This document shows, in pieces, positions 35,766-36,351 of a stretch of DNA of 64,000 bases. Position numbers and translations under genes: made by a program. Numbering within the stretch: position 1 is the stretch's first letter; every line of letters begins with the position of its first letter. This DNA is from Escherichia phage SholemSchwarzbard, in the sequence record PP925840.1. One strand, given 5' to 3'. A model generated the notes under the pieces. That model searched no databases, was not told the DNA's origin, and saw only the letters and a program-made list of their open reading frames with translations.

Positions 35766-35796
35766 ACCAAAAAGCCCCAACCTTTTGGTCGGGGCT
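35766..35796 (-). terminator. rho-independent terminator
   Basis: plus agccccaaccttttggtcggggct; on minus the stem is followed by UUUUUGG; a second hairpin (aggcccggaaaggcct) lies just downstream. Confidence 0.6.
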
Positions 35797-35803
35797 AAGA
35801 ATG

Positions 35804-36277
35804 TTATTTGATTTGTTTAGCAGACCAAATGCGGTCTTTAATAATTTTTTGGATGTCTTCAACATACTCAAGAGAGTGAGCATGTGGGTTATCTTTGAAA
35901 CTATAAGCACGAGCTAGTTTTTGGCCTTCAGTTTTGATTACTAAAAGCTCTTTAAGGATAGCTTCATATTTGGAGATAATTCCTTTAACAATATTTTTTT
36001 CTTGTGCAGCTTTAGGATCTGCTTTAGGAGCAGGTTTACCCGAAGCCTTTGCAAAAGCAGCGCCAGTAGCAACTAAACTTTTCCAGGCCATACTAACTGC
36101 ATTTCCCGTAAATCCTTCCGCTTTCATGTCGCGTGCGAACTGGAATCGCGATTCATCAGAAGCATCTTTATAAGAATATTTACCCGCTGCAATGGCTGCT
36201 TTTGCGACAGCTTGAATTTCGGTGCTAGATGCTTCATTTAACACCGCTTCATTTAAAAATTGAGTATATGATTTCAT
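35804..36277 (-). CDS. internal-protein-like late protein with capsid-targeting-type N-terminus
   Basis: 157 aa starting MKSYTQFLNEA (compare MKTYQEFIAE); Ala/Lys-rich; preceded by a late promoter. Confidence 0.6.
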   Translation of the reverse strand: MKSYTQFLNEAVLNEASSTEIQAVAKAAIAAGKYSYKDASDESRFQFARDMKAEGFTGNAVSMAWKSLVATGAAFAKASGKPAPKADPKAAQEKNIVKGIISKYEAILKELLVIKTEGQKLARAYSFKDNPHAHSLEYVEDIQKIIKDRIWSAKQIK

Positions 36278-36313
36278 CTTATTTCCTGTTTTAATTCGTG
36301 GATTTAATATACT

Positions 36314-36321
36314 TATTTATA
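36314..36321 (-). promoter_or_regulatory. late promoter TATAAATA
   Basis: minus strand TATAAATA about 37 nt upstream of the ATG at 36277, with SD AGGAA in the leader. Confidence 0.45.
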
Positions 36322-36327
36322 CCAAAA

Positions 36328-36351
36328 AGCCCCAACCTTTCGGTCGGGGCT
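36328..36351 (-). terminator. rho-independent terminator (near-duplicate of 35773..35796)
   Basis: plus agccccaacctttcggtcggggct; on minus the stem is followed by UUUUUGG. Confidence 0.55.

Follow-up and report, generated by a model that had tools for sequence, protein, structure and literature searches.

A terminator-bounded cassette with a putative late promoter next to rnaC in a T4-like phage probably encodes an injected protein of the Ip type

The DNA analysed here is a stretch of 64,000 nucleotides from Escherichia phage SholemSchwarzbard (PP925840.1), hereafter called the window, and its source is a Tequatrovirus (T4-like phage). The 2.2 kb around the locus under study are 92-98% identical to several hundred genomes of T4-like coliphages and Shigella phages. 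Comparison with annotated T4 places the cassette described here between rnaC and e.8, all of them being transcribed from the minus strand. The upstream neighbour rnaC (stable RNA species 1; 36402..36540, minus strand) shows 97.8% identity to the annotated T4 rnaC over all 139 nt, and the cassette starts just downstream of it. The downstream neighbour e.8 (35299..35634 including its promoter, CDS 35299..35562, minus strand; phrog_2678) is 95.8% identical to T4 e.8, and a promoter scan assigned to it a sigma-70-type early promoter of its own at 35634..35606 (minus strand). An Rfam scan of positions 35000-39000 returned tRNAs only, with no match at the hairpins which bound the cassette.

The open reading frame of 157 aa which had been reported in the preliminary description is present at 35804..36277 on the minus strand. 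It begins with MKSYTQFLNEAVLNEA, is listed as RB32ORF132c in RB32, as g140 in phage fD1 and as g136c in fPS-90, and belongs to phrog_2280, a family of unknown function. A Shine-Dalgarno sequence AGGA (36284..36287, minus strand) could be read 6 nt before the ATG. The dN/dS of the gene is 0.04-0.18 against relatives ranging from 97% down to 76% nucleotide identity, and the ORF is a real gene under strong purifying selection. Its product is encoded in 511 phage records, and every database record inspected labels it as 'hypothetical protein'.

The protein family is tiny, with 13 clusters in 5.8 billion sequences and likewise 13 when 1.84 billion representatives were searched exhaustively with an HMM, all of them phage-type. 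In several distant homologs the C-terminal half has been swapped. The predicted mature product is about 15.5 kDa in size and has a pI of 9.6, similar to that of IPII and IPIII. Pfam and NCBIfam scans of this protein, and of a 187-aa protein encoded at the same site in other phages, gave sub-threshold noise only, and the match in PHROGs was to the family of unknown function only. A profile search against PDB sequences produced a single match, to a designed PPR protein, which contained no significant stretch and was rejected as spurious. The AlphaFold2 model of the 157-aa protein is all-helical and of moderate quality (pLDDT 73, pTM 0.40), and Foldseek searches with this model against viral models and the PDB returned its own family, with no other match at E <= 0.001.

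The gene is flanked by two GC-rich stem-loops on the minus strand. The upstream one (AGCCCCGACC-GAAA-GGTTGGGGCT) occupies 36351..36328, and the downstream one, with the same stem and an AAAA loop, is located at 35796..35773. Each hairpin is 24 nt long, has a 10-bp stem with 7 G-C pairs and runs into TTTTT, the sequence after both hairpins being TTTTTGG. Two 24-nt hairpins differing at one loop base had been described earlier and are confirmed here; the repetition extends beyond them. A direct repeat of 36 nt has copies at 36319..36354 and 35764..35799 (minus strand), which are identical at 35 of 36 positions (97%) and spaced 555 nt apart. A 30-nt hairpin pattern, with 3 mismatches allowed, occurs twice in the 64-kb window and in none of 100 shuffles. 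The folding energies of the two hairpins are -19.7 and -21.6 kcal/mol, with z of -4.3 and -3.8 relative to shuffled controls. Stem positions 7-8 vary (GA, AG or AA) opposite TT, and each of these variants can pair in the RNA of the minus-strand transcript, as a terminator would. These features support the prediction of both hairpins as intrinsic (Rho-independent) terminators, of which the upstream one would end the tRNA/rnaD/rnaC transcript and the downstream one would serve as the terminator of the cassette itself. The downstream repeat copy is followed by GTATCTAGG, as is the single hairpin of T4, T2 and T6. The hairpin is specific to the rnaC/e.8 locus and is present in one or two, rarely three, copies per genome. 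With two copies in the window and these low numbers elsewhere, its interpretation as an element dispersed over the genome was rejected.

Immediately after the T-run of the upstream terminator lies the T4-type late promoter octamer TATAAATA (36314..36321, minus strand), 37 nt upstream of the ATG, from which a late transcript would start near 36306-36309. Octamers of this type are -10 elements which gp55-RNA polymerase uses late in infection. The octamer occurs 14 times in this AT-rich window against 11 expected, which is no significant enrichment, and therefore the argument for a promoter is drawn from its position and its conservation across genera. In Tequatrovirus, Dhakavirus, Mosigvirus and Jiaodavirus, homologs of the gene follow shortly after the tRNA/stable-RNA cluster, and in all four genera a GC-rich hairpin with a T-run precedes the gene although the stems differ (in Klebsiella phage KP1, for example, the hairpin reads AGCCCCGTC-TTCG-GACGGGGCT). 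The order of hairpin, T-run, [G/A]G and octamer is kept in Tequatrovirus, Dhakavirus and Jiaodavirus, in which the octamer sits two bases past the T-run; Mosigvirus has a variant octamer, AATAAATA, and a few extra bases after the T-run. Database annotation at this position gives a predicted late promoter in fPS-90 and a promoter in Lutter, and a -35/-10 pair could not be found between the upstream hairpin and the ATG. Position and conservation thus support the octamer as the putative late promoter of the 157-aa gene.

Such a promoter had been thought to distinguish this gene from its neighbours, and this holds for the three other genes of the window with a similar N-terminal leader, which have sigma-70-type early promoters or none and no late octamer. 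Early-type promoters are present at the gene at 39637 and at the upstream gene of the 30322/30812 pair; the ORF at 30322 starts 16 nt after the 30812 ORF and is devoid of a promoter of its own. A second composite of hairpin and octamer is located at 52894-52946 on the plus strand, where a strong hairpin (AAGGGAGCCCATGGGCTCCCTT) is followed by TTTCTT, by the late octamer at 52939-52946 and by an ORF downstream. The design of a terminator followed by a late promoter is therefore not unique to the cassette and recurs in late regions.

Sequence comparison identifies codons 1-15 of the gene (36233..36277, minus strand) as a leader of the capsid-targeting type, MKSYTQFLNE/AVLNE/A, in which slashes mark putative cleavage sites of the prohead protease gp21. 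The variant leader with an LxE context which had been claimed before is thus present, and it contains the L-x-E motif twice (L8-N-E10/A11 and L13-N-E15/A16). The doubling is a tandem duplication of 5 codons (15 nt; LNEAV/LNEAS) at 36233-36262 (minus strand; TTAAATGAAGCGGTG / TTAAATGAAGCATCT), and the alleles of RB27, Dhakavirus and Mosigvirus have a single copy. When all ATG-initiated ORFs of at least 40 aa in the six frames of the window were considered, only four starts matched ^MK.Y..F..E. The other three are placed at the classical ipII/ipIII and ipI positions (30322-30795, 30812-31129 and 39637-39870, all minus strand) and have the canonical leaders MKTYQEFITEA, MKTYQEFIAES and MKTYQEFIAET, respectively. 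The bodies of these ORFs differ from T4 Ip1-3; the one at 30322, also 157 aa in length, matches Pfam DUF7412 over its full length (E = 5.7e-96). In T4, IPII and IPIII begin with MKTYQEFIAE/A and IPI is cleaved after ITE19. The sequence MKSYTQFLNE agrees with MKTYQEFIAE at 6 of 10 positions.

All distant homologs found among the 1.84 billion representative proteins keep the leader motif [YF]xxFLxE, with leaders such as MLKFNEFLAE, MINFSDFLNE and MKSFSSFLNE out to E = 1e-4, and also MKFKEFLAEA. BLASTP aligns residues 1-11 of the 157-aa and 187-aa proteins and nothing else. Since the leader is kept in the remotest homologs and is the sole part in common with the 187-aa protein, its resemblance to the Ip leader is not the fortuitous one which the preliminary description had allowed for. 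The comparison indicates that the leader of the 157-aa protein is under selection.

The content of the site was compared by measuring, phage by phage, the distance between fixed anchors in rnaC and upstream of e.8. This distance is 70 nt in T2, T4 and T6, which have a single hairpin (the T4 rnaC-e.8 interval consists of one hairpin copy and nothing else), and 625 nt (70 + 555) in the window and in Lutter, which have the 157-aa gene. It amounts to 753 nt in RB14 with the 187-aa gene and to 1314 nt in fPS-90 with both genes. The values of 70 and 625 nt imply that T2, T4 and T6 lack precisely the 555-bp repeat-to-repeat unit. A presence/absence polymorphism with breakpoints at the hairpins, which the preliminary description had anticipated for T-even genomes, is therefore found, and the alternative of identical content in all relatives did not hold, other phages having a different cassette or both. 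The unrelated 187-aa gene is located at the site in RB14, G4498 and T4_ev151. Its product starts with the near-consensus leader MKTYAEFLTEA and is encoded in 165 phage records, those inspected again stating 'hypothetical', and a conserved ATAAATA core is present about 40 nt upstream of the gene start. The order in Yersinia phage fPS-90 is rnaC, hairpin, late octamer, 157-aa gene, hairpin, 187-aa gene, a different hairpin and e.8. Every junction falls inside CTT-hairpin-TTTT[G/A]G, and the sequence after it is GTATCTAGG at the e.8 flank, GTATAAATA in the 157-aa unit and TTTGAATCAC in the 187-aa unit. The 187-aa cassette is bounded by non-identical hairpins and its ends have about 11 nt in common (GGGCTTTTTGG).

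A census with the fPS-90 locus as query matched 705 records, 127 of which have both cassettes, and an evenly spaced sample of 60 was typed. Both cassettes were present in 11 of the 60, the 187-aa gene only in 3 and the 157-aa gene only in 24 (5 of these with a different left flank). The remainder consisted of 3 with a diverged Mosigvirus-type homolog, 7 with an empty site and others which matched in rnaC only. Among the related genomes in the sample, the 157-aa gene alone accounts for ~40%, the 187-aa gene alone for a few percent and both together for about 18%. On the e.8 side, 477 nt of T4_ev151, a phage with the 187-aa gene only, show no difference from fPS-90 with its two genes, and its rnaC-side flank matches the window without any difference. 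By flank comparison RB14 with its 187-aa gene is as close to the empty T2 as the empty T4 is to T2. The flanks of the site thus appear as a mosaic, and the comparison shows a cassette which is polymorphic and, judged from the genomes lacking it, dispensable.

The arrangement recalls the PeSL of T4-type phages, in which a stem-loop terminator and an early promoter flank accessory ORFs (Arbiol et al. 2010, PMC2839356; Comeau et al. 2014, PMC4122927). Recombination between neighbouring PeSLs deletes the ORF and leads to detectable mini-circles, and a variant with a middle promoter is named PmSL (PMC2839356, PMC4122927). As in a PeSL, a GC-rich stem-loop terminator directly precedes a promoter, a Shine-Dalgarno site and an ATG, and hairpins flank a single accessory ORF at the boundaries of insertions or deletions between close relatives. 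The layout would insulate the cassette transcriptionally, and its gain and loss can be explained by a crossover between the flanking copies, possibly with a mini-circle. In contrast to PeSL and PmSL, the putative promoter is of the late type instead of a sigma-70-like early or a MotA-dependent middle promoter. Moreover, the 36-nt hairpin segment alone is duplicated while the promoter is not, and the hairpin is found once or twice per genome, at the rnaC/e.8 locus only, unlike the dispersed PeSL family. The cassette therefore resembles a PeSL in its working and lacks two of the defining features, namely the early promoter and the dispersed family. What looks like a classical PeSL-type cassette (35032-35300) is present beside it, consisting of a 54-aa ORF (35066..35230, minus strand; phrog_5461, RB14ncORF134c) between e.7 and e.8, two immediate neighbours in T4. 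A 50-nt direct repeat surrounds this ORF (35032-35081 and 35251-35300, 72% identity), and each of its copies contains a sigma-70-like early promoter.

We propose that both copies of the 36-nt repeat act as crossover sites and that crossing-over within them would delete the 555-bp unit. Since four genera have homologs at this very position, the simplest and probable explanation for the empty sites of T2, T4 and T6 is a deletion between the direct repeats. Re-insertion through a circle or during co-infection is plausible; a circular intermediate could bring the unit back while leaving the neighbouring transcription units undisturbed.

Virion data are available for phage fD1 (phiD1), whose g140 is 98.8% identical in DNA to the window gene. 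This protein (157 aa, 17.3 kDa) was listed as particle-associated at the strict threshold by LC-MS/MS, and so was g146, the 'head protein' of the fD1 ipI locus (PMC8309999 Table S3). The same list is low in specificity and names DenV, lysozyme e, NudE, dNMP kinase and gp57A as well (PMC8309999 Table S3). Since these include non-structural enzymes, 'particle-associated' is to be read as expressed and co-purifying with virions, which falls short of proof of a place in the head interior. In fD1, denV is directly followed by the lysozyme gene e, with no genes at the ipII/ipIII position (PMC8309999 Table S3, g130-g131). The three Ip sites thus vary in their cassette content independently of one another between phages.

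The Ip family of T-even phages was reportedly surveyed by Repoila et al. in 1994, and the T4 Ip proteins or their family are said to be the subject of a study by Bair et al. from 2007. Each of the T4 proteins Ip1, Ip2 and Ip3 inhibits a different type IV restriction enzyme of the GmrSD type, and other proteins of 'the two Ip loci' are expected to act likewise (Silas et al. 2025, PMC12373910). In the literature consulted, two Ip loci only are described (PMC12373910); the leader peptides of the cassette proteins are absent from the supplements of Silas et al. The 157-aa protein agrees with the Ip family in having an N-terminal leader of about 10 aa ending in L/I-x-E, in being small, basic and apparently dispensable, and in a body which is unrelated to the other Ips so that the leader alone is common. 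Like the Ip loci, its locus is highly polymorphic, the content differing between close relatives. It differs in its position at a third site between rnaC and e.8, which is empty in T2, T4 and T6, in its putative late promoter where the other ip genes of the window have early-type ones, and in its variant leader with a duplicated cleavage motif. For the 157-aa protein, packaging, injection and a host target are predictions. Loading into the prohead, processing and delivery with the DNA would be a general strategy held in common with Alt, gp67 and gp68 of T4 and with DarA/Hdf of P1, by analogy. However, no similarity of sequence or fold to these proteins was found, and Alt, gp67 and gp68 belong to the head module as conserved components whereas the 157-aa gene is a polymorphic cassette.

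The reading which we favour, and hold to be rather probable, is that the 157-aa gene encodes an unannotated injected protein of the Ip type at a third Ip locus and that recombination inside the hairpin repeat accounts for its gain and loss. The self-contained unit of 555 bp would comprise the rnaC terminator hairpin, the late promoter, a ribosome-binding site, the 157-codon gene and the second copy of the hairpin. The protein would be made late and directed by its leader into the prohead core, where gp21 would trim it after LNE at residue 10 and/or 15. The trimmed product, a small internal protein of basic charge, may then enter the host together with the DNA. Its most likely role, by analogy with T4 Ip1, Ip2 and Ip3, would be to neutralise one particular host defence, such as a type IV restriction enzyme of the GmrSD type. 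As no family, fold or solved structure could be matched to the protein, this anti-defence role is an argument from analogy. The late-promoter, terminator-bounded cassette is new here as a minor twist; the Ip-type class itself is already known and the gene is fairly ordinary.

It could be argued that the ORF is not a gene at all and that the repeat arose by chance or as an assembly artefact. The label 'hypothetical' in every database record is all that favours such a reading, to which we give practically no weight because it is refuted by the purifying selection, the presence of the gene in hundreds of independent genomes and the peptides detected in fD1; the repeat, moreover, is present in independently sequenced phages. 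More serious is the possibility that the protein is a late accessory protein which is not packaged, with an Ip-like N-terminus that stems from shared ancestry or past recombination with ip genes and no longer targets the capsid. The virion data come from one proteome of low specificity, the leader differs from MKTYQEFIAE at 4 of 10 positions and the gene lies outside both recognised Ip loci, all of which fit this view. On the other hand, no feature is better conserved among the very distant homologs than the leader and its L-x-E, which is hard to explain without selection on the leader, and a second, unrelated protein at the same site has a near-consensus leader. A late promoter and a basic mature product are both in keeping with a component of the head as well, and we therefore regard a non-packaged protein as unlikely.

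The proposed role of the hairpins may be questioned separately. They could be two terminators of common origin without any part in exchange, the pattern being produced by homologous recombination in the flanks at co-infection or by co-conversion during GIY-YIG homing, and the original deletion being one rare slip between the repeats. T4-type phages recombine freely, the flanks are 92-98% identical over kilobases, a segB-like GIY-YIG ORF lies 1.5 kb away, and the hairpin is locus-specific with 1-2 copies per genome, unlike dispersed PeSLs. However, all four states of the site differ by whole units which end in the hairpin or the T-run, and T4_ev151 and fPS-90 differ by the 157-aa unit alone on an identical e.8-side flank. 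The states also do not follow the relatedness of the flanks, as seen for RB14 against T2 and T4, and this independence argues for repeated events at the repeat. Recombination in the flanks as the full cause seems doubtful to us, somewhat less so than the absence of packaging discussed above, and it is partly compatible with exchange at the repeat as we propose it.

A bolder extension of the favoured reading is that the single terminator hairpin which follows rnaC serves specifically as a docking point for self-contained late Ip cassettes, a third Ip locus which was missed because T2, T4 and T6 are empty there. The 157-aa and 187-aa proteins would then be new injected inhibitors of host defence, for example of GmrSD subtypes outside the range of Ip1, Ip2 and Ip3. 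We offer this tentatively, as a possibility that more probably fails than holds and yet deserves slightly more credit than either of the two rivals just weighed. If it is true, cassette content would contribute to the host range of therapeutic T4-like phages. In any case, two further leader-bearing proteins are encoded by several hundred sequenced T4-like phages, many of which are therapy candidates, and both proteins are candidates for new injected anti-defence factors. T4_ev151 and fPS-90 provide a natural isogenic-like pair in which the cassette is the sole difference on one flank. The locus also offers a clean case from nature of a late-promoter cassette between terminators and could serve for the study of gene gain and loss through short repeats in T4-type genomes.

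Further differences from T4 are seen upstream of the cassette. A 115-aa ORF (36663-37010, minus strand; phrog_3355) is placed between rnaD and tRNA-Arg, which adjoin in T4, and represents a further insertion or deletion in the region; homologs are annotated in G4498, Lutter, ESh16 and Shf125875. The tRNA cluster (37029-38623, minus strand) contains ten tRNA genes, including His, Asn and Tyr which are absent from T4, and lacks the Pro gene of T4. It is split at 37846..38379 by a 177-aa ORF of the GIY-YIG type which resembles the homing endonuclease SegB. Finally, a chimeric protein of 94 aa is encoded on an assembled contig of 2.9 kb. Its N-terminal two thirds match the trna.3 product (39011-39430 in the window) and the C-terminus of the 157-aa protein makes up its last 31 residues, which implies a natural deletion of the whole tRNA cluster with fusion of both genes.
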